Below the pieces are notes generated by a model that worked only from the letters and a program-made list of their open reading frames with translations, did not search any database and was not told the origin of the DNA. DNA of 57,159 bases from IMG/VR virus record IMGVR_UViG_3300005294_000044, positions 1 through 57,159 of that record, one strand, 5' to 3'. The first letter of the stretch is position 1. Each line of letters starts with the position of its first letter. This DNA is from a virus. Taxonomy: Duplodnaviria > Caudoviricetes. This document shows, in pieces, positions 38,204-48,129 of the stretch. The position numbers and the translations under genes were made by a program.

Positions 38204-40804
38204 TCACTGCGCTGATGTCTGCTGTACGGGCGTTGGAGTAACGGGAGTTGGTTGTACGAGTGCCGGCTGGGCTGGCGCTGGAGCGGGTTCCTGTGGAACT
38301 TCCTCAGTTTCCATGCCCGGCTCTGCCACAATCGAATACCTGGCGTCCTCTTCCAGGGCCACTTGCCAAGCATCCCAGTCTTGTACTCCAGCAGCCTGAT
38401 CGGTGGCTGATTCCCCGCTCTGGCCCTGTGGGGCATTCGGATCTACCGGCATCCCAGGTGCGGCCGGTGCCGGAACCGGGGGCTGCACAGGAACCGGTTC
38501 GGGGGCGGCGGCGAACAGCATCTGGAACCGGGCCGCCCGGTTGCGTTGGGCGTAGATGGCCTCGTCTTCCATGATGTCCTGGAAGCGCTGCCAGCGTTCC
38601 TCAGCGTCACCATCGCCTTGGGCATCGAACTGTGCCGAGACCTGCTCCCTGATGGCGTCAACGATCCCGGTGGGCGGGGCTTCGTACACTGTGTCCTCCT
38701 CGTCGGCGAAGACCATGCCGGCAGCGGTCAGGGCGAGGCGTTCCTCGTTGTCCATGGCGTAGACCGGGAACGCTGGGAAGTTCACCGCCAGGGCGGCAGT
38801 TAACTCCAGGTTCCCCTGCACGGCGCGCCAGTCCCCGGACAGGGGGCTGCGCCGTAGCTTGGCTGCCTGCTTGGTGGTGGCTTCCGGGACCAGGGCGCCA
38901 GCCACCCAGATGCCGAACTCGTCCTCACCGGCTCGTACAGTGGCGATCTCGTATCCGGTGTCGTCGTAGTGGCGCACCACATTGGAGTAGTTCCACGAGA
39001 TCGGGGCGTGCCCGGTGTCCATGGTGATTTTCCCGGTGCGCACCAACTGCCCATCGGAGGTGAGCGTGGAACCCAGGTGGAAGGGGCGGTAGCCCAGCTT
39101 GGTCCGGGGGGCCAGCACACATTCGCGCATGGTCACGTCACGGTGGCACTCGTTCCAGGCGGCCAGGTGACCGAACACCCGACCGTCACCAGTCACCTGG
39201 AGCGGGGTGCGCTGCTTCAGGCTCGGGTTGTCGAACCAGTCGGCCGGCGGGGAGACGGTGGAGTCGAACGTGTCCACTTCGGTCACCGCGTAGCCGGAGT
39301 TCTGTTCGGAGTCCGAGACGTTGACCCCATACTTCTTCAGGGCTGCGGAGATCCGACCCTTGATCTGGTCCAGTTCCTTGGCCGAGTACTGACGGGCGTT
39401 CTTGGGCATGTTGATGTACGACCAGGCAGCTCTACAGTGTTCCTCGGAATCGAGGGGATACCGCTTCTTGCCGTCATCCTGGTAGCCCGGGTCGGCGTAC
39501 TGAACATCACCGTAGGGTTCCTTGGGGTCCTGTGCGGCGAAGTCTTCCATGGCTAGTTGCACTCCTTCCTTCGCCGAGCGATCCCAGGGGGCCCGGATAT
39601 CATTGTCGTTGAATTCACGTGCCATTACCGGATAGATGTCGCTGATCACACTACGCAACTGGGCCATGTCTTCAGTAGAGATGCCCGGCAAACCACCATG
39701 GGCCCCCGACAGCAACGCTGCGGCGGCATAGACGGCGTGATAGATCAGGGTCAGGCGACCATTGATGATGTCGCCTACCGGAAGACGGTACGAGGTGGTC
39801 GCTGTCTCCGGCTGGGCCGGGTCCCGCCACAAGAATGCGCGGCGGAGCTTACCGATATCAGCACCTTGTGCACTGACCTGAGCCCAGGCTGCGATTCGCT
39901 TGACCGCGTCGTCATTGTCAAAGACCGCATTTCGAGGCGCCAGGGGGAGCCCATGCCACCCGGTCGTGTTGACGGTAAAGACCTCTTGGAGGTCAGCATC
40001 CACACTCGCTCGGTACCGCTGGTCCGAGCAACCACAGTCATCGGCGTCGTCGCCAAGTTCCCCCACCATGTCCGGATCGTCATCGGGCCAGTCCCCGTCC
40101 CCCAGGTCCATCAACCGCATGGCGGCGAAAGCTGGGATGGAGACCAGGGTGGCCCCACCGATCGTGTACATGGTCATGTGGTCGAACCCGGTCTCCGGGT
40201 TCACCGTAGCGGAGATCCGACCCCCTGGGTCCACGCTGGGTCCGGCTACCCCCATCTGCACCAGGTGTCGGGCCTGCTTCACCTGGGGGACGATGTCCTC
40301 GTTCAGCCAGTCCCCCCAGGCGTAGGCCCAGTCCTTCCCCTCGTGGTCGGGGCCGTAGGTGATGCCCAGGATCCGGCCCACGGTGACGGCACCATCGTGC
40401 CCCGGGCCGGTCTTCTCCCGCCAGGCCAGCGGGAGCGGCAGCATCCGGTGGGACAAGGCGCCGTGCTCGAAGATCCGGGTCTTGTTGGGTTCCCCGGTGG
40501 GGCGTCCGATGGGCGCGATGGGTCCAGCCCAGACCTGCCCCAGCTCCGGCTGCATGTCCATCAGAGCCTGAGCGGCAACCAGGGCGCGTTCCCCTGGATG
40601 TCCTTTCCCGGGTGGGGCTCCTACTGCCTTCTGGTGCAGAATATTGCACAGGCCCTTAGGGTCCTTGGGGAAATACTTCTTCAGTTGCAAGACGCATCGA
40701 TAGAAGTCATTGGGCATACGCCAGCGAATCTTGGCAGCACCTTTACCCACGAGCCAGTAGCGAGCTAAAGGTAAGGGCATACCCCTAAGAGGATTGGGGT
40801 CCAC
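38204..40804 (-). CDS. Capsid maturation protease (multidomain)
   Basis: PLPL...GHDGAVTVGRI...GPSVD...GATLVSIPAF; YADPGY...KRYPLD module; GRVFGHLA.W..CH...SGDWR....LEL.AAL.VN.P.FP; AGGAGG RBS before GTG 40804. Confidence 0.8.
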   Translation of the reverse strand: MDPNPLRGMPLPLARYWLVGKGAAKIRWRMPNDFYRCVLQLKKYFPKDPKGLCNILHQKAVGAPPGKGHPGERALVAAQALMDMQPELGQVWAGPIAPIGRPTGEPNKTRIFEHGALSHRMLPLPLAWREKTGPGHDGAVTVGRILGITYGPDHEGKDWAYAWGDWLNEDIVPQVKQARHLVQMGVAGPSVDPGGRISATVNPETGFDHMTMYTIGGATLVSIPAFAAMRLMDLGDGDWPDDDPDMVGELGDDADDCGCSDQRYRASVDADLQEVFTVNTTGWHGLPLAPRNAVFDNDDAVKRIAAWAQVSAQGADIGKLRRAFLWRDPAQPETATTSYRLPVGDIINGRLTLIYHAVYAAAALLSGAHGGLPGISTEDMAQLRSVISDIYPVMAREFNDNDIRAPWDRSAKEGVQLAMEDFAAQDPKEPYGDVQYADPGYQDDGKKRYPLDSEEHCRAAWSYINMPKNARQYSAKELDQIKGRISAALKKYGVNVSDSEQNSGYAVTEVDTFDSTVSPPADWFDNPSLKQRTPLQVTGDGRVFGHLAAWNECHRDVTMRECVLAPRTKLGYRPFHLGSTLTSDGQLVRTGKITMDTGHAPISWNYSNVVRHYDDTGYEIATVRAGEDEFGIWVAGALVPEATTKQAAKLRRSPLSGDWRAVQGNLELTAALAVNFPAFPVYAMDNEERLALTAAGMVFADEEDTVYEAPPTGIVDAIREQVSAQFDAQGDGDAEERWQRFQDIMEDEAIYAQRNRAARFQMLFAAAPEPVPVQPPVPAPAAPGMPVDPNAPQGQSGESATDQAAGVQDWDAWQVALEEDARYSIVAEPGMETEEVPQEPAPAPAQPALVQPTPVTPTPVQQTSAQ

Positions 40805-40812
40805 GGTGATCC

Positions 40813-41328
40813 TCACCTCCTAGGTCGCCGCTTGGCGTCGCCCCTCCGGTCACCGTTCCGCTTGCACTCCAGGCAGGTCCGTGCCCCATAGGTATTGACG
40901 TACCAGGACTCAGGCTTCGTGATGTCGTGCAATCCGCTACGACAAACTTTACGGATCGCATATGAGTTAATTCCTCGGGCGATATTGATCGACGAGGTAG
41001 TGGGGTCCAGGTGTGATGGATTAACGCACAACTTGGTTCGACAGAGGTGATCGAGTACAAGTCCGTCAGGTATTGAGGCTCGAAGCAATTCGAAAATAAC
41101 ACGATGAGCTTTTTGACCATGGAAGATTCCATAGCCATACATCTTGCTGACTTCGCCACGCCATAACCAGCACTCATCCGCTGGGCCTTCTGTCCAGCAT
41201 TCCTCCAGCTTCCATTGCGATCGCTTCTTCGTAAAGAGTGGATCTCCGTAACGCCACCAGCGCTTGTAATGCTTATCGCACATACCTCGGGTACCGGAAG
41301 GACCGTCACAGCCAGGAGTGCAGCACAT
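40813..41328 (-). CDS. Free-standing HNH homing endonuclease
   Basis: CWLW.G....YG...AHR....LDHLC...CVNPSHL...N; Zn motifs at both ends. Confidence 0.9.
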   Translation of the reverse strand: MCCTPGCDGPSGTRGMCDKHYKRWWRYGDPLFTKKRSQWKLEECWTEGPADECWLWRGEVSKMYGYGIFHGQKAHRVIFELLRASIPDGLVLDHLCRTKLCVNPSHLDPTTSSINIARGINSYAIRKVCRSGLHDITKPESWYVNTYGARTCLECKRNGDRRGDAKRRPRR

Positions 41329-41356: not shown

Positions 41357-42082
41357 TCACCGGCCCCCTTCAACTATCACTACATCGCACCGACAGCCGA
41401 TAACTTCCTCGGGTGGTCCCATTGGATCACCTGGGAACATCAGAGGGAAGTTGCCGACCACGAATGGAGCATAGAGTTCTACAGTTTGTCCATCGGCAGC
41501 GGCGTGTGTTGGACGTACCCGTCGATCACGCTCAGAGTCCCACCGCTTAAGAAGCCGGCGTCCAGAAACTCGGCTCTGCTCCAATCCAGCAGCAACGGTG
41601 CCAGCCCCATATGCTCGCGTTGTTTCCGTAACTGCAATAACTCTCGCCCGATTCGGCCATCGCTCACTATCGGTATAGGTGAGCACCCGATCGACTCGTT
41701 GAGCGACCTGCTCCACAGATCCACCACTGTTCGTGGCATCAGTTATCTCCGTAAAGATCAGGTTGTAGACCTCGGACGGGATCCGGACCAGAAGGTTCTG
41801 GGTCTGGGCCAGTTGACTCATGACGAAGGCGTGCCGGGATACTGGCGGCAGGTTGGTGGCCTCGTTCCATGCCCCCATGGAGATCTGCCCGATGACGGAC
41901 AGGATCGTGTCCACCTCATCATCCCAGTCGCCCTGGGTCTGGAAGATGTTGGCCGGGTCCGGCATCATCTTGTACCGGTTCCACGGATCCATGACCGCAT
42001 CTTTGGCCTTGCTCAGCCAGCGACGCAGGGCCCCCGACACGACCCCGAACAGGTGTTGTTCGTCGCGTTCACGGTTGGGCAT
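41357..42082 (-). CDS. MuF-like (SPP1 gp7) minor head protein
   Basis: RARVIAVTETTRAY...K.W....D.RVRPTH...DGQ...PF.VG...L.FPGDP...EVIGCRC. Confidence 0.9.
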   Translation of the reverse strand: MPNRERDEQHLFGVVSGALRRWLSKAKDAVMDPWNRYKMMPDPANIFQTQGDWDDEVDTILSVIGQISMGAWNEATNLPPVSRHAFVMSQLAQTQNLLVRIPSEVYNLIFTEITDATNSGGSVEQVAQRVDRVLTYTDSERWPNRARVIAVTETTRAYGAGTVAAGLEQSRVSGRRLLKRWDSERDRRVRPTHAAADGQTVELYAPFVVGNFPLMFPGDPMGPPEEVIGCRCDVVIVEGGR

Positions 42083-44981
42083 CGAGGAACCCTCTGGTTC
42101 GCAGAGCCTCCCCTAGGGCGTTGGCATCATGCTCCGCGCCACTGGCCAGGGTCAGGGTGCAGTAGCTTTCCAGCACGTTGCGCAGGGCATTGGTGTCCAC
42201 GGTCATGGACAGGTTGTCGGTCAGGACCGACAGGTGATCCCACACTCCCCGCAGCAGGGTCTGGGCGTGCACCACACCCTTCACTTTGATCTTGGTGTGG
42301 AGCTGATGCGGTGGGGTATCCGGATACTGGCCCCGGGTGGTGGGATCCAACAACCGCTTCCCGGCCACCTCCAGGGCCCGCAGCGCTACCGCGTTGGCGA
42401 CCACGAAGGTGGTGATGGGGGAAGGCACCGAAGCTGACGCGGTGCGGGCCTCTACTGGGGTACTAGCGTTCTGGCCCGGTCCAGCCAGGGCATTGGCGGC
42501 GGTGGAGTTGACCGGCATCGGGGGCGGCACCGTCTCCTGGATCCCGGTGGGCGGTGCCGGCGGGGGTGCGGGGCCGGCACCGTTGCTCTGGGGTGTGACC
42601 ACCGTGTCGGCCGGCAGGATCGCCTGGGTGTAGCCGGCCACCTCCCGCAGTTTGGCGATCTGGAACAAGTTGGGATCCCTGAGCATAAGCTCGCGGGTGA
42701 AGCGCTTGAGGTCCTCTTCATCGGACGGGGCATCGGTGAGCTTGTAGTCCCCGGCGATGAGCACCGCCTCGTTGGAGACGATGCCCTTCTCTTGTAGATT
42801 CAGGGTGTCCTGAAGCCTTTGTGGACGGACGACTAGCGGGGCCGTGTCGTAGGAGAACGTGTACCGGTCCGGGTCCTTCTTGATCGCCTTCAGGGCCGGG
42901 GTCAGGTACGTCATCGACAGCGCTTCACAGATGCGCGTCATGATCGGTTCAATGTGGACTTTGACGTTCTCAGCGCCTACGTGCCAGGCGCTGTTACCGG
43001 TGTAGTAGGTGGTGCCGTTCCGTTTGGCGAACCAGGTCCCGTTGTCGGTGACCGGGCACCATACAGTGCCGGTGTATTTGACAACCTCTTGGTCATGGGT
43101 TCCAGTCAGCGACTTCATGGGCCGGACCGTGCTACGAACCCAGTTACCAACGGCATGGCCACCGTCAGACTGAATGGTAGATACCATTCGTCCGGACAGG
43201 ACTAGGGCCAACTCGTAAGCGTCCAGGGCACGAGGATTCCGTTGCCAGATGTCTAGGTTTCGGGGGTAGTGCCAACCGTCACCCTGGCACGACACATCGA
43301 TGAACAACTCCAGTTGGGCCCTGGTCAGGTTCTGGATGAAGTCCAGGGAGACGATCTTGCTAGGAGCCAGGGGGCGCAATTGATCCCCGGCCAACTTATT
43401 GAGCCGGAAGACAGTAACCGGGCCACCGTACGATGAAACGCAATCTTGAATGGCGTCCGTCCATGACGGCACGACCGACTTGCGAAGAGTCGTCGCCCTG
43501 GCTCCGAACAATCGCGTCAAGCATCCTCTGATCCGATCGACCTTGACGGGGTTCTTGGTATGCGACTGACAGATGGTGATACGACCGCTATCGCTACCCT
43601 CGGTCCAGTACCAGGCCATCAACTCAACGAAGTCGTCAAGATACTTCGGCTCAGTGGGTAGGTCTGCTGCCGGAGCAGCCGTGGGTATGGCGTGTTCGCG
43701 GAATAGTTCCTGAGTGGTAGTGAACTCACGAGCCAGGTACCTGACACCGTCTTGGTAGCGCGGTCGCAGGACCGGCCAACGATGCTCCGGAGTGGTCAGT
43801 GACGAGTGACCCTTACGCTGCATCGAGAGCATCGGTTCATCTACGACCTCAGCTCGGTAGATGTCCTTGACGGGCCCCCACTCACTGAGCCCGGTCTCGT
43901 GGTTCAAGGTCAGGACCTGATCCCCGACCTGGATCTCGCTCTCCTTCTTCCATCCATCTCGGGTGAGGATCTGGGTCTGGTCATCGACGCACCAGTGATT
44001 TGCGTCCCCGGTTCCCAGCAGAATTTCCGGCGCCATATCCATCGCTAAAGCGAAACGTCTCACTGCTTCTTGGCGAAGGTCCAGAGCCTGTCGGCTCAGC
44101 TCGCTGGCGAAGTTCACCAACTGGATCTTGCCCAGGGCGTCCAGCGGAACTTCCATGATGGTGGGGACCACTCCAGCGGCAGTGCCCTCGCCTTTCAAGG
44201 AGGCCGAGCCAGTGCGCAGCAGCTTGGTGGTCAGGCCCTCGGCACCAGTGAGCCTGCCATCTTCGTCACTGTCATCGTCCGGGAAGCTGATCTCTTGTGG
44301 GATCGGTAGAAGTCCAGCAGACACCAGGCGAGAGTCAATCTGGGCAAACACATAACGTGTGAGACGCTCGATCTCCCACAACATAGGCAAAGCCGCCCGC
44401 GTCGGAGAATCAGCCCAGATATTGCGGCGCGGGTGGGGAGTCCAGACTCGGATAACAAGGTCAGAGTTAGGGTCCAGGTATTCCTTGGAGCCGTCCGGGT
44501 AGATGTAGGCAATGTTGCCTCCCCATCGCCTCAGTTCCGAACAGGAGACGATGAACCATTTATCTGGATCATCGTCGTTCTTGGCCCCGCGTCCGACGAT
44601 GTAGAAGTCCCCCGCCACCGTCAGGTTGATCCCTGCCAATCTCAAGGCTTCAGCCTTGGAGCTGGGACCTCCGAGCACAGTGTCGGCAATGGCGGCAACC
44701 TTCGGGTCGGTGCTCTCCTGCTGGACCCGGCCGTTCTTGTCCACGTCGGCCACATAGATCCGCACCCGGGAGCAGGCTGAGCCCACCCAGTTGGCGGCGA
44801 ACCGTAGCTCTCCCACGATGTCGTAGAGGCGCCAGGCTTCGGACTGCCACTCGTCGTTGCCGAACCGGTAGGTGCGCCAACTCTGACCCTCCAGGTTGAC
44901 CCGGGCGGCCGAGGCAACCAGGCTGGAGGCTGCCTCATGGGGCGGTGGGGTGACCTGTGGGGTGCGCCGGAACCGTCCCAT
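42069..44981 (-). CDS. Portal protein containing an intein
   Basis: WQ.EAW..YD.VGEL.F...RVW.PHP...DSP.RA....EI..L; synteny after TerL. Confidence 0.88.
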   Translation of the reverse strand: MGRFRRTPQVTPPPHEAASSLVASAARVNLEGQSWRTYRFGNDEWQSEAWRLYDIVGELRFAANWVGSACSRVRIYVADVDKNGRVQQESTDPKVAAIADTVLGGPSSKAEALRLAGINLTVAGDFYIVGRGAKNDDDPDKWFIVSCSELRRWGGNIAYIYPDGSKEYLDPNSDLVIRVWTPHPRRNIWADSPTRAALPMLWEIERLTRYVFAQIDSRLVSAGLLPIPQEISFPDDDSDEDGRLTGAEGLTTKLLRTGSASLKGEGTAAGVVPTIMEVPLDALGKIQLVNFASELSRQALDLRQEAVRRFALAMDMAPEILLGTGDANHWCVDDQTQILTRDGWKKESEIQVGDQVLTLNHETGLSEWGPVKDIYRAEVVDEPMLSMQRKGHSSLTTPEHRWPVLRPRYQDGVRYLAREFTTTQELFREHAIPTAAPAADLPTEPKYLDDFVELMAWYWTEGSDSGRITICQSHTKNPVKVDRIRGCLTRLFGARATTLRKSVVPSWTDAIQDCVSSYGGPVTVFRLNKLAGDQLRPLAPSKIVSLDFIQNLTRAQLELFIDVSCQGDGWHYPRNLDIWQRNPRALDAYELALVLSGRMVSTIQSDGGHAVGNWVRSTVRPMKSLTGTHDQEVVKYTGTVWCPVTDNGTWFAKRNGTTYYTGNSAWHVGAENVKVHIEPIMTRICEALSMTYLTPALKAIKKDPDRYTFSYDTAPLVVRPQRLQDTLNLQEKGIVSNEAVLIAGDYKLTDAPSDEEDLKRFTRELMLRDPNLFQIAKLREVAGYTQAILPADTVVTPQSNGAGPAPPPAPPTGIQETVPPPMPVNSTAANALAGPGQNASTPVEARTASASVPSPITTFVVANAVALRALEVAGKRLLDPTTRGQYPDTPPHQLHTKIKVKGVVHAQTLLRGVWDHLSVLTDNLSMTVDTNALRNVLESYCTLTLASGAEHDANALGEALRTRGFLDAQP
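42993..43991 (-). mobile_element. Intein (333 aa) with LAGLIDADG domain, in the portal
   Basis: NHW|CVDDQTQILTRDGW...TPEHRW...AWYWTEGS...QGDG...VWCP...TGN|SAW. Confidence 0.92.
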
Positions 44982-45317: not shown

Positions 45318-47612
45318 TCAGAGGAGTCGGCCCAGGTCGTAAAGCTCCTGGCCGAGACGGAAATCGTACTTGCCTGGATCCGACACCCGCATCCGTCGTT
45401 TCTCCCCCGCCATCAGGTATCGACAGGCATGGACCAGGGCGTCCATCCGGTCCGGGGAATCGCGGGTGGACTCGGGATCGAACAGAACCATCTGGTTCTC
45501 CAGCTCCTCGAATTCCGCGCACTGGGACAGGTCCACTACACCACAGGTGCAGACCATATGCAGGCGTCCCTGTTCGTTACGCATAGCCACCGGCTCGGCC
45601 CGGGTCTTCTTCCCGTGCTTGGAATCCACACCCTTCATGGGGGGGGTGGTGCCGGGCGGGAACAGCCTTTCCTCGTCGCGTAGTTCCACGTACGCATCCT
45701 GGAGCACTTCCTGCATCCAGCGCTTACCCAGGTTGGTTTCATAGACGAGAAGATCTGCTCGGTACTGGGCCAGGACCCGCCACATGTGAATAGCAGCCGC
45801 TCGACCAGTGCCAGGGAAGCTGTGATCTGCGAGCACGAACATTTCGTCCGCCGGGTCCCGACCCACCACCACGATCCCGGTCTCGGCCTCTTCGCCGGTG
45901 AGGTTCGGGTCCACTCCCACAACGCGGGCAACCAACTCATCGGGAACTCCTACGATCCGGTTGCGGTAGATGTCCATCCGTTTGAACAGTCCGCCCCCGG
46001 TGGCGTCAAGCATCTTGCCGTACAACTCCTGCTCACCCAGGGCGGTGCCGGCGTAGCGGTTCTTCAGCTCCCGCAGCACGTGCTGGGACAGGTTGTCAGC
46101 ATTGTCGAAGGTGGATCCACCCATGACGTGGACGGTCCCGTCACTGCGGGACAGCCATTCGATCAGGAGCTTGATCGGCTTGGGGGTGGTGGTGACGAAT
46201 GCCCGTGGGTGATCGTCGACAAGGTCGATGCGGAGCGAAGGCAAGATGCCTTCATACCAAGACTCGTATGGCTTGGGCCACTTGGCTAACTCGTCGCAGT
46301 TGTGGATCTTGATACGACCTGAACCAGCGAAGAACTCGGGAACATTCTCCACGACCAGGTCAAAGACATCAGCGGGGTTGATCTCCCGCTCTACGTGCAG
46401 CACGACCACTGGCACCGTATCTACGGGCTGATTCTCGTCGACAGTCGTCTGAACAGCGTTTGGCTCGCATCCCGGTACTGAGGAAGGTACTACCGCACAT
46501 GTCGCAGATAACTGGACGCGGTTCCCGTCGTTGCCAGTAGGCCCGGAGCCGGTCGCGAACCGCCTCTGGTGTCTGGTGTCTCGTCCACGCATCATCGTCT
46601 CGTTGCAGGGCAGTAAGTCTGCGATGGTCTGAGATGGTGAGAAGTTCAAGGTTCGATAGGGAGTTGTTACTTCGGCTTCGATCGATGTGATGGATCTCGT
46701 AGCCCTCGGGGATGACTCCATGGACGCTGATCCAGACGGCTCGATGCAGGAGCATCCCGTCTCGGTTGTAGTAGTACCTGGCCCGCTTGTTGTAGAACCA
46801 GGACTCTCCTCCCCACTCGAAGAAGGCGGGGGCTGAGGATGGCACAGGATCTGCGTATCCATTTTGGATGACCATGACGATAAGGTATCACCAATATGGA
46901 CCTGATCTGCTCTTACCCAAGATCCATTAGCCCATATTCGGTGATCGCCGGTGACGGCAACGGAACCTTGCGAGGTGTGTATGCGGAGTACTTGGGCACC
47001 CTTGCCGGACAACCCGCTTCGAAGCACCCGCCGCCATCCCTGAGTGGTCGCCACCAAATCTCCGGGCTGAACGTTTTCTATGCTTACTGGGCCCTTGAGG
47101 GTGACGACAGGTTCGCCCTCAGCCACGCACCAACAGCCCGAGGCGTTGTATCCACGCCCCACATCCTCGTCATCCGCACCTTCCGCGTAGACCTTCACCC
47201 CATCCGGGAACAGGACCATGGGACGGGGGGACTGCTTGTAGCGGTGGGGCATCTTGCGCCGGTCCAGAACGGAGAGCATGCCAGCCGGCCCGTCCATACA
47301 GATGGTGCGGGTATCGGCCAGAGTCTCCCCGATGACCAACCACTCGGTGGGGCGCCCAGCTCGGTCGACCGGGTGCTTCTGGATCTGGTCAGTGAGCCAC
47401 TCCGAACCGGCCCGACTCTTCCCCCAACCTCTGCCGGCAAGAGCCAGGGCGACCAGCCAGTCCCCAGGTGGGGGGATCTGCTCCGGTCGGGCGACCCACC
47501 ACCACTCTCCCCGGGCCATCTCCTCCAGGGCCAGGTCGGACTGTTCCGACAGCCACTGTTCCCGGACATCTGTCGGAAGTCGGGAAACTCGTTTGAGAAG
47601 GGACAGGCCCAC
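45318..47612 (-). CDS. terL: Terminase large subunit containing an intein
   Basis: Walker A AGRGWGKS; spliced Walker B GCWCDE; TTTPK; GEQELYG; VGVDP; SPDRMDA; likely GTG start at 47612. Confidence 0.93.
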   Translation of the reverse strand: MGLSLLKRVSRLPTDVREQWLSEQSDLALEEMARGEWWWVARPEQIPPPGDWLVALALAGRGWGKSRAGSEWLTDQIQKHPVDRAGRPTEWLVIGETLADTRTICMDGPAGMLSVLDRRKMPHRYKQSPRPMVLFPDGVKVYAEGADDEDVGRGYNASGCWCVAEGEPVVTLKGPVSIENVQPGDLVATTQGWRRVLRSGLSGKGAQVLRIHTSQGSVAVTGDHRIWANGSWVRADQVHIGDTLSSWSSKMDTQILCHPQPPPSSSGEESPGSTTSGPGTTTTETGCSCIEPSGSASMESSPRATRSITSIEAEVTTPYRTLNFSPSQTIADLLPCNETMMRGRDTRHQRRFATGSGPTGNDGNRVQLSATCAVVPSSVPGCEPNAVQTTVDENQPVDTVPVVVLHVEREINPADVFDLVVENVPEFFAGSGRIKIHNCDELAKWPKPYESWYEGILPSLRIDLVDDHPRAFVTTTPKPIKLLIEWLSRSDGTVHVMGGSTFDNADNLSQHVLRELKNRYAGTALGEQELYGKMLDATGGGLFKRMDIYRNRIVGVPDELVARVVGVDPNLTGEEAETGIVVVGRDPADEMFVLADHSFPGTGRAAAIHMWRVLAQYRADLLVYETNLGKRWMQEVLQDAYVELRDEERLFPPGTTPPMKGVDSKHGKKTRAEPVAMRNEQGRLHMVCTCGVVDLSQCAEFEELENQMVLFDPESTRDSPDRMDALVHACRYLMAGEKRRMRVSDPGKYDFRLGQELYDLGRLL
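46299..47129 (-). mobile_element. Intein (277 aa) in the TerL Walker B motif
   Basis: GCW|CVAEGEPV...TGDHRIW...VFDLVVE...FFA....IHN|CDELAKW. Confidence 0.92.
46369..46875 (-). CDS. HNH endonuclease nested out of frame inside the TerL intein
   Basis: LHRAVW...G.IPEGYEIHHID....NN...NLELL...H plus CDMCG...CS..C; own ATG and stop; frame differs from TerL. Confidence 0.85.
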   Translation of the reverse strand: MVIQNGYADPVPSSAPAFFEWGGESWFYNKRARYYYNRDGMLLHRAVWISVHGVIPEGYEIHHIDRSRSNNSLSNLELLTISDHRRLTALQRDDDAWTRHQTPEAVRDRLRAYWQRREPRPVICDMCGSTFLSTGMRAKRCSDDCRRESARRYGASGRAARRAGDQPR

Positions 47613-47706
47613 GAGATGATCATAAACGGCCTGTAGTATCAAAGGACCACCCGGCGTCTTTGGCGCCGGGCTTCTTTTGTCGTATCCAGGGGGTACCCTG
47701 ATCAAC

Positions 47707-48129
47707 ATGACTTCCGAAATGATTGAACACGTTCTTCTTGGCCGTGAAGTGGTAGAAGACGGCCGTCTCAAGCAGCTTCGCGAGCAGCTCGGATTTTCGG
47801 TGAACATCATGTCCGAGGTGCTCTACATGAATGCTGTCAGCTACCGACGTTGGGAATCTGGCACTGGTGCGGCCCTTCGTCCCTCTATTGCCGAGCGACT
47901 CGGTCGGTTCTATATCCAGGCCAATAAGGCGCTGGAGTTGCTGAGCGAACAGGGCCTGGACCTAGGGGGACTAATTCCGTTTCATCTGGTCGCCGGGGCC
48001 GCTGGGCTTCCCCATGAAATCCTGCTCCAGCACTGTCGCCAGGGTCGGGTCAACGGAGTGGACCTGGGCATCCTGGGGATGTGGCTTCGTCGCAGTGATC
48101 TGGACAAGTTCATGGCGGATGTGCGATGA
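47707..48129 (+). CDS. XRE-like HTH DNA-binding protein
   Basis: LKQLREQLG.S...MSE.L.....SYRRWESG; divergent from terL; likely start 47707. Confidence 0.75.
   Translation: MTSEMIEHVLLGREVVEDGRLKQLREQLGFSVNIMSEVLYMNAVSYRRWESGTGAALRPSIAERLGRFYIQANKALELLSEQGLDLGGLIPFHLVAGAAGLPHEILLQHCRQGRVNGVDLGILGMWLRRSDLDKFMADVR

Follow-up and report, generated by a model that had tools for sequence, protein, structure and literature searches.

Inteins whose nuclease is encoded outside the reading frame of the intein have been described in phages and in a cyanobacterial gene. In actinophages, one preprint describes inteins whose endonuclease VII-like nuclease lies in 'reading frame 3', together with antisense LAGLIDADG and VSR-like nucleases, names the terminase large subunit among the four host protein types of these non-canonical inteins, and proposes that the intein was invaded by a free-standing nuclease gene (Gosselin, Arsenault, Gogarten, bioRxiv 10.1101/2025.01.02.630785). 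In a second preprint, a cyanobacterial dnaX intein holds a LAGLIDADG nuclease in a +2 open reading frame (ORF), and Gorbalenya 1998 is credited with the first proposal (Phillips, DeSimone, Gogarten, bioRxiv 10.64898/2026.09.14.751524). A third study from the same group as the other two describes ShiLan-type insertions, in which an out-of-frame HNH nuclease is hidden in phage DNA methylase genes with no detectable ribosome-binding site, and proposes leaderless initiation (Arsenault et al., Genes 2025, PMC11855218). Inteins of terL, the gene for the large terminase subunit, map to ATPase motifs including Walker B, and the accessible portions of that survey mention no out-of-frame nuclease (Kelley et al. 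2016, PMC5050341). The locus considered here is a terL intein in IMG/VR record IMGVR_UViG_3300005294_000044, a metagenome-assembled virus record of 57,159 bp (the window, taken at its full length) from an uncultivated soil phage, with an estimated completeness of 89%. Its features (Table 1) are probably best explained as a mobile class 1 intein that carries a separate, overprinted homing nuclease gene of the HNH_3 family.

The initial annotation had placed an intein with intact splicing blocks inside terL, and the same coordinates were recovered here. The insertion point lies inside the Walker B motif of the terminase, at GCW|CDE. Class 1 inteins are recognized by Cys or Ser at position 1, a Thr-x-x-His block, a terminal His-Asn pair, and Cys, Ser or Thr at position +1. 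Related loci were gathered by a terL scan of viral contigs and by HNH scans of metagenome and viral contigs; after removal of duplicates they comprise 11 distinct inteins including that of the window (among them L048, which equals L038 apart from one base difference), and the intein-bearing relatives are uncultivated phages of soil, freshwater and other metagenomes. C1, T60, H63, D257, F266, H276 and N277 are invariant in all 11, each followed by Cys at +1. An AlphaFold2 model built on a six-sequence intein alignment exceeds a predicted local distance difference test score (pLDDT) of 90 for most of residues 1-92 and 230-277, with 10-residue block means of 84-96 across the N-terminal Hint lobe. 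The confident part superimposes on the splicing domain of the Mtu RecA mini-intein (Z 20.1, root-mean-square deviation (rmsd) 1.4 A, 128 residues aligned), and 83 of 147 aligned chains, many of them other inteins, reach Z >= 8. The Pfam family Intein_splicing stays below threshold (22.7 bits against 35.8). Together, the splicing residues and the modelled structure point to a class 1 intein with a Hint fold, and splicing of the terminase precursor is to be expected because terL is essential and the splicing blocks are conserved.

Table 1. Features of the terL locus and its nested nuclease gene (window coordinates)
Feature	Position	Strand	Remarks
terL (large terminase) open frame	45318..47810	-	830 codons (amino acids, aa), intein included; Terminase_6N match
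Intein, class 1 type by motifs (Cys1 ... His-Asn, then Cys+1)	46299..47129	-	277 codons, no stop; terL residues 228-504
N-terminal Hint lobe, intein residues 1-92	46854..47129	-	Cys1 and Thr60..His63 block; from fold model
Intein-frame filler, residues 93-229	46443..46853	-	predicted disordered Ser/Thr/Pro/Gly linker; bases shared with HNH frame
C-terminal Hint lobe, intein residues 230-277	46299..46442	-	ends in His276-Asn277
+1 Cys codon of C-extein	46296..46298	-	splice-junction nucleophile; Cys in 11/11
HNH nuclease ORF	46369..46875	-	168 codons + TGA; own ATG 46873..46875; offset +2/-1 from intein frame
HNH_3 catalytic core, HNH residues 42-86	46618..46752	-	Pfam match; His63, Asn75, His84 invariant
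Cys4 zinc-ribbon-like motif of HNH (C124, C127, C141, C145)	46441..46506	-	all invariant
Candidate -10-like hexamer TACCTT	46882..46887	-	six bases upstream of HNH ATG

The two lobes are joined by a stretch of a different character. Residues 93-229, a linker of 137 residues, have a pLDDT below 50 and no secondary structure in the model, and the Ser, Thr, Pro and Gly fraction of the filler (0.45, over 166 residues) exceeds that of the exteins (0.26). The same bases hold the nested ORF, which the initial annotation had described as a separate same-strand nuclease gene with its own ATG and stop. This is borne out by a match to PF13392 (HNH_3) at E 1.2e-15 and 57.3 bits, above the cut-off of 24.8 (59.8 bits in a six-frame search); no endonuclease VII or LAGLIDADG family appears in the Pfam listing for the nested protein up to E 0.01. 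The ORF encodes, in order, a beta region at the N-terminus, the HNH core and the Cys4 ribbon. Its structural model (mean pLDDT 77.8) comprises beta strands, a strand-strand-helix core and a helical linker, after which the four Cys residues lie in a region of two short strands and one long helix. The top Foldseek row is the homing endonuclease I-HmuI (PDB 1u3e), a weak match (E 0.033, template modelling (TM) score 0.27) to what is presumably another HNH_3 member; I-HmuI is encoded within an intron, whereas the nested HNH lies within an intein. Matches to Cas8-HNH domains are local (about 50 residues, rmsd 2-3 A, 27-34% identity), all with E > 0.001. Profile and metal-site residues thus assign the predicted product to the HNH_3, or His-Me finger, nucleases.

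An open frame nested in this way could arise from an assembly or sequencing artefact, with the HNH truly in frame and two compensating indels in the window contig. The window is indeed a metagenome assembly, and the comparison made here, over positions 46100-47350 in four other public runs, relies on contigs rather than reads, so that rare variants could escape it. No insertion or deletion relative to the window is listed in any of the four runs over this interval. It is covered with 0 gaps by two contigs, each from a different further soil study: one is 52,047 nt long (run X2), the other 7,154 nt (run X4). In translated searches (tblastn), the HNH falls one frame behind terL at each of 16 related loci, namely all 7 from metagenomes and all 9 from viral contigs. 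The intein frame is open in all 11 distinct inteins, which also retain an intact HNH ORF of 164-170 codons, with its ATG at intein nucleotide 254 or 257 and its TGA 55-73 nt upstream of the intein end; the indels among them are multiples of three. The concern over compensating indels, raised when the locus was first annotated, is answered by these data, and an artefact has next to no probability.

Sequence evolution in the overlap depends strongly on the frame in which it is read. Over the length of the HNH ORF, stops are absent from both the HNH frame and the intein frame, whereas the third sense frame has 6 and each antisense frame 5-7. When the HNH protein was held fixed and its synonymous codons were redrawn according to window codon usage (5000 draws for each of three sequences), just 0.0006-0.004 of the redraws left the intein frame open, and openness in two frames is therefore beyond chance. 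This agrees with the proposal in the initial annotation that about 500 nt are kept stop-free in two frames, and the comparison of the ratio of nonsynonymous to synonymous substitution rates (dN/dS) in both frames, also suggested there, gave a clear outcome. By the Nei-Gojobori method (six sequences, 15 pairs), whose estimates are biased in overlapping genes although the direction is unambiguous, dN/dS in the HNH frame is 0.04-0.21 (11 of 15 pairs with computable dS, the other four being saturated), while over the same bases the intein frame gives 1.06-2.19 (15 of 15 pairs). The uncorrected ratio pN/pS is lower in the HNH frame than in the intein frame in all 54 usable pairs from 11 sequences (one identical pair was skipped). 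Its median of 0.42 for the HNH resembles that of the non-overlapped splicing lobes (0.47), and the intein frame over the overlap reaches 1.18. These values show selection on the HNH frame, with an intein-frame reading of the overlap that looks unconstrained. Low pLDDT, a dN/dS above 1 and Ser/Thr/Pro-rich composition also fit the earlier description of the filler as a linker that is tolerated because it is spliced out.

The same data bear on the idea that the HNH ORF is a dead relic, no longer expressed and open by chance or through the constraint on the other frame. In favour of this idea, the intein frame has to stay open anyway, which restricts some changes. Constraint from the intein frame would, however, be expected to produce the opposite of what is seen: pooled over 11 sequences, differences fall at HNH codon positions 1, 2 and 3 in proportions of 0.32, 0.27 and 0.53, and these third positions are the second positions of the intein frame. 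Start, stop, catalytic residues (His63, Asn75, His84) and the four cysteines (Cys124/127/141/145) are kept in 11 of 11 sequences, over terL identities that fall to ~46-50%. The HNH ATG is the same in every sequence, yet the two residues that the intein frame reads across it may be Ser-Trp, Thr-Cys, Thr-Trp or Ser-Cys, so that the constraint there stems from the HNH start. A relic is accordingly very improbable indeed, and a functional nuclease gene remains the favoured interpretation of the ORF.

The distribution of the HNH links it to the intein rather than to the terminase. In all 16 related loci with an HNH, the HNH is located inside a terL intein. When records were searched with the HNH alignment, all 5 from intein-less relatives gave no match, including three that are 94-100% complete and whose terL is 58-69% identical; the 4 of 4 intein-bearing records that served as a positive control gave one match each, the nested copy. 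This speaks against a packaging role on which the phage depends and indicates that the HNH travels with the intein. Empty alleles are common: 18 of 21 viral terL relatives run uninterrupted across residues 228/505, one (L012) has an intein and two are uninformative, and the exteins of several intein-less relatives are 80-85% identical. The junction in empty alleles reads W-[LVC]-D-E, and the closest ones read W-L-D-E-[LM]-A-K-W, without Cys at the site used in the window; the +1 Cys of the window therefore belongs to the inserted allele.

Beyond these loci, relatives of the HNH among deposited phages are few. A tblastn search of 50,697 phage records returned 3 distant matches, all free-standing genes, and a DNA search of the region against the same records returned nothing; no deposited phage in that set therefore carries this element. 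The three relatives, from Sphaerotilus phage SN1, Pseudomonas phage vB_PaeS_FBPa53 and Exiguobacterium phage vB_EauM-23, are 205 aa each, lie between terL and a portal or 62 kDa structural gene, and share 29-38% identity with the nested HNH over 78-85% of the protein. They have its overall architecture and its terL neighbourhood; unlike it, they are separate intergenic genes. HNH proteins assist cleavage at cohesive-end (cos) sites in some phages. The nested protein could accordingly be viewed as a terminase-associated packaging factor rather than a homing nuclease, given that these three relatives sit directly downstream of terL and that the nested gene sits in terL itself. This is quite unlikely in view of the 5 intein-less relatives that lack any homologue and the 4 intein-bearing records in which the match is exactly the nested copy.

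One pair of sequences bears on the homing nuclease interpretation. The X2 contig shows 18 differences from the window over the compared interval; the 17 that are listed all fall outside the 831-nt intein, within the extein flanks (420 nt). The differences nearest to the junctions lie 24 and 31 nt away (Fisher p ~2e-9, with all 18 counted outside the intein). The HNH protein of the window also has a database record, P0009, from a contig of 52,047 nt. Recent homing with short co-conversion tracts would be expected to produce such a pattern, which suggests a recent transfer.

Homologous inteins occupy three positions within five codons of Walker B. The first, before the Cys of W|CDE, is used in the window and in L049, L052, P0001 and P0003; the second, WLDE|CVKW, in L012; and the third, WLDE[IL]|CKW, in L033, L034, L036, L038, L044, L048, L051, P0002 and P0004. 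Empty alleles with a Cys exist for the first position (L030) and the third (L019, L028 and L029). A tree of intein plus HNH (10 rows, L048 being omitted as a near-copy of L038) is poorly resolved, with 1 of 7 inner branches well supported. Two site changes, the minimum, suffice to explain it, and it speaks neither for nor against repeated switching.

Other insertions were seen in terminase genes during this survey. P0005 belongs to a different terminase family and contains an intein with a related N-lobe (45% identity, 32% of the query), which lies at an unrelated site near the terminase C-terminus (PDRMDA|C ... HN|C). The middle of this intein has an extreme content of Ser, Thr, Pro and Arg, which gives the impression of overprinting. 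The large terL insertion of Microbacterium phage A3Wally, considered as a further case, occupies a different site, and no nuclease-like out-of-frame ORF was found in it. Another large in-frame insertion occurs at the Walker A motif of terL in L012 (~342-1433) and L028 (~1726-2880). In L012 it directly follows GRGWGK, starts with Ala, ends in THN before Ser and contains LAGLIDADG-like motifs; the L012 terL would therefore have two inteins, one canonical and one with the out-of-frame HNH. A separate peculiarity affects Walker A in one clade of the intein-bearing relatives, in L036 (~2425-2450) and likewise in L038, L039, L044, L045, L046 and L048, where the terL frame changes: an extra T converts TTC-GGx into TTT-C-GGx, after ...AGRGF the reading runs out of frame and stops after 7 more codons, and the remaining terL (GKS...) lies in the +1 frame without a start codon of its own. 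The extra T is common to sequences that differ at neighbouring synonymous sites and is not present in the window, L033, L034, L049 or L051. This looks like programmed slippage by +1, with tRNA-Phe moving from TTT to TTC before CGG, and not like an error.

The initial annotation also proposed that a free-standing HNH gene had invaded a mini-intein. The free-standing architecture of the ORF, with its own start and stop, favours such an invasion, as do the three free-standing relatives; distant in-frame HNH_3 inteins also exist, and invasion is no more than the likelier origin. In a set of 5.8 billion proteins (proteins alone), 36 clusters of 121-191 aa match at E ~6e-22 or better. A gap separates these from the next proteins, mostly of ~200-230 aa with E values of 3e-12 and weaker, in which N-terminal region, HNH core and Cys ribbons are all present. 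A profile search of genome contigs with the HNH alignment gave 65 pattern hits, with no relative and no prophage copy among them. The in-frame cases, P0006 and P0007, are inteins of B12-dependent ribonucleotide reductases that combine a Hint domain with an HNH_3 core, as here, the core being 40-49% identical over 43-54% of the query (E 2e-6 and 1.3e-5). Because they share this core, the element could instead descend from an ancestral in-frame HNH intein through two indels. Unlike the nested HNH, however, their nuclease domains are minimal, without the N-terminal beta region and the Cys4 ribbon, while free-standing proteins of ~205-230 aa match better and over a greater length with the full architecture (P0045, E 3e-12, 76% coverage), and the nested ORF retains its own start and stop. 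An origin by indels is thus on the unlikely side, though it deserves serious consideration; it concerns only the history of the element, and invasion of a mini-intein is the origin favoured here.

How the nuclease is made is a further question. The HNH ORF spans the end of the N-lobe to the start of the C-lobe, the site of in-frame nuclease domains, and it might be produced within the intein as a canonical fusion by programmed ribosomal frameshifting, perhaps with a shift back again. Against this stand a stop in the HNH frame 3-4 codons upstream of the ATG in 9 of 11 sequences, which leaves almost no room, the lack of a common slippery motif in the aligned bases, the conserved TGA stop and the need for a second shift back before splicing; frameshifting is very improbable. 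The preferred account is translation from the ORF's own ATG. The TACCTT-N6-ATG arrangement reported in the initial annotation is present as written. As a leaderless promoter it is a candidate at most, and the uncoupling of nuclease timing from late terL expression, also put forward there, is speculative. At -12 to -7 the 11 sequences carry TACCTT, TAGCAT, TAGTAT (two), TATTAT, TACCAT, TATCCT and CATTAT (four), so that positions 2 and 6 are always A and T, respectively. TANNNT is the pattern of actinobacterial leaderless promoters. The two fixed bases are also set by the intein, as base 1 of a Thr, Ser or Ile codon and base 2 of a Leu or Met codon. One hint of a promoter comes from codon choice: where Ser occurs there it is encoded by AGY in 3 of 3 sequences, compared with an AGY share of 0.28 among Ser codons in the long genes of the window; since the sequences are related, these cases are not independent. 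A weak hairpin at the HNH stop (46390..46371), inside terL, was not taken as a terminator. A bolder extension would have a leaderless mRNA from the gene's own promoter within terL supply the nuclease before the late terL message, and a loose or distant cut site allow the intein to be re-seated at the three Cys codons (W|CDE, WLDE|CVKW, WLDE[IL]|CKW). This combined scheme is rather improbable; if true, it would offer a natural case of intein insertion-site drift driven by a nuclease outside the intein protein.

Several observations weigh against a mobile intein with an active, separately made nuclease. The sole RNA datum, a 256-nt metatranscriptome contig inside the HNH ORF (X7, 46598-46852), is uninformative on transcription, strand and ends. 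A sigma-70 scan found no site on the HNH strand before the ATG, and no conserved Shine-Dalgarno motif precedes it. The global structural match of the HNH model is weak (best Foldseek E 0.033), and a PDB sequence profile search with the HNH alignment returned nothing. The eighteenth X2 difference has no listed position. Across the family, identities of intein, HNH and extein are positively correlated (Spearman 0.51-0.84), so that family history mostly looks vertical or local and homing may be rare.

Set against the evidence from conservation, frame-specific selection and distribution, these points leave the overprinted homing nuclease as the best explanation, and a coherent sequence of events can be proposed. 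Ribosomes on terL would yield a precursor in which the two Hint lobes (1-92 and 230-277) are joined by the 137-residue disordered linker; the lobes would fold together, excise the intein and restore GCW-CDE. The linker would be the terL-frame reading across a second gene, that of the 168-aa HNH_3 nuclease, one base out of register. The HNH would be translated from its own invariant ATG, either by an internal start on terL mRNA or from a separate transcript. During co-infection, the free nuclease may cleave or nick terL alleles that have no intein, close to the Walker B codons, and repair would carry the intein, together with the HNH and a short flank, over to the empty allele.

The surrounding genes complete the description of the window. 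The terL ORF matches Terminase_6N (E 3.3e-13) and, weakly, Terminase_6C (21.3 bits, below the cut-off of 22.6). Its actual start is probably near 47612, because P0001, a database protein that is 97% identical, begins 66 codons downstream of 47810 with GTG (MGLSL...), as relatives do, and because the longer version starting at 47810 overlaps a divergent helix-turn-helix (HTH) gene (47677..48129, +). Within the portal ORF (42069..44981, -), a stretch of 333 codons (42993..43991) resembles, by its motifs alone, a second intein, canonical and in frame: it opens with Cys after HW, includes TPEH as well as two LAGLIDADG-like motifs, and closes with Gly-Asn ahead of Ser. Pfam gave no family for this stretch and a PDB sequence search nothing significant. 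A free-standing HNH_3 gene of 171 aa (40813..41328, -; E 5.2e-8), with Cys-rich N- and C-terminal parts, sits between a Mu F-like head gene (41357..42082) and an 870-aa gene (38204..40816); its relationship to the nested HNH is distant, with 24% identity across 62 residues. Counting this gene, two nuclease genes and one intein, perhaps two, are found in the packaging and head module of the window.

Inteins with a separate overprinted nuclease gene are still rare, and further examples bear on how inteins and homing nucleases first joined ('splicing first, nuclease later'). This family adds 11 distinct DNA sequences, a terL divergence to about half identity and a clean frame-specific selection signal, as well as empty alleles, a transfer-like pattern and three neighbouring insertion points. 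It also offers a natural example of ~500 nt open in two frames, where no more is required of one reading than to be harmless as a linker. In annotation, the nuclease may go unnoticed when a gene caller accepts the long terL ORF.

The resemblance to the described systems is close in arrangement and differs in the parts. The initial annotation had mentioned out-of-frame intein nucleases in actinophages, and this is correct (bioRxiv 10.1101/2025.01.02.630785). The actinophage inteins and the present one both have the nuclease on the same strand, between the splicing blocks and in another frame, with an in-frame reading that is structureless or, here, predicted to be unstructured; their nuclease is endonuclease VII-like, whereas here it is an HNH_3 protein with a Cys4 ribbon. 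The dnaX intein shares the +2 offset, the low omega in the nuclease frame with omega > 1 in the host frame over the overlap, and the idea of secondary invasion of a mini-intein, but it combines a cellular gene with LAGLIDADG, in contrast to a phage terminase with HNH (bioRxiv 10.64898/2026.09.14.751524). ShiLan-type insertions likewise have an HNH overprinted out of frame in an insertion that is open in the host frame; they lack splicing domains and the insertion stays in the protein, whereas here the Hint lobes should remove it (PMC11855218). A literature search, with preprint supplements outside its scope, returned no report of an out-of-frame HNH_3 nuclease inside an intein; the architecture is therefore a known one with a different nuclease family. 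The nested nuclease belongs to neither of the reported families, endonuclease VII-like or LAGLIDADG; as an HNH_3 protein with zinc ribbon, it represents a third type within the same-strand +2 architecture.

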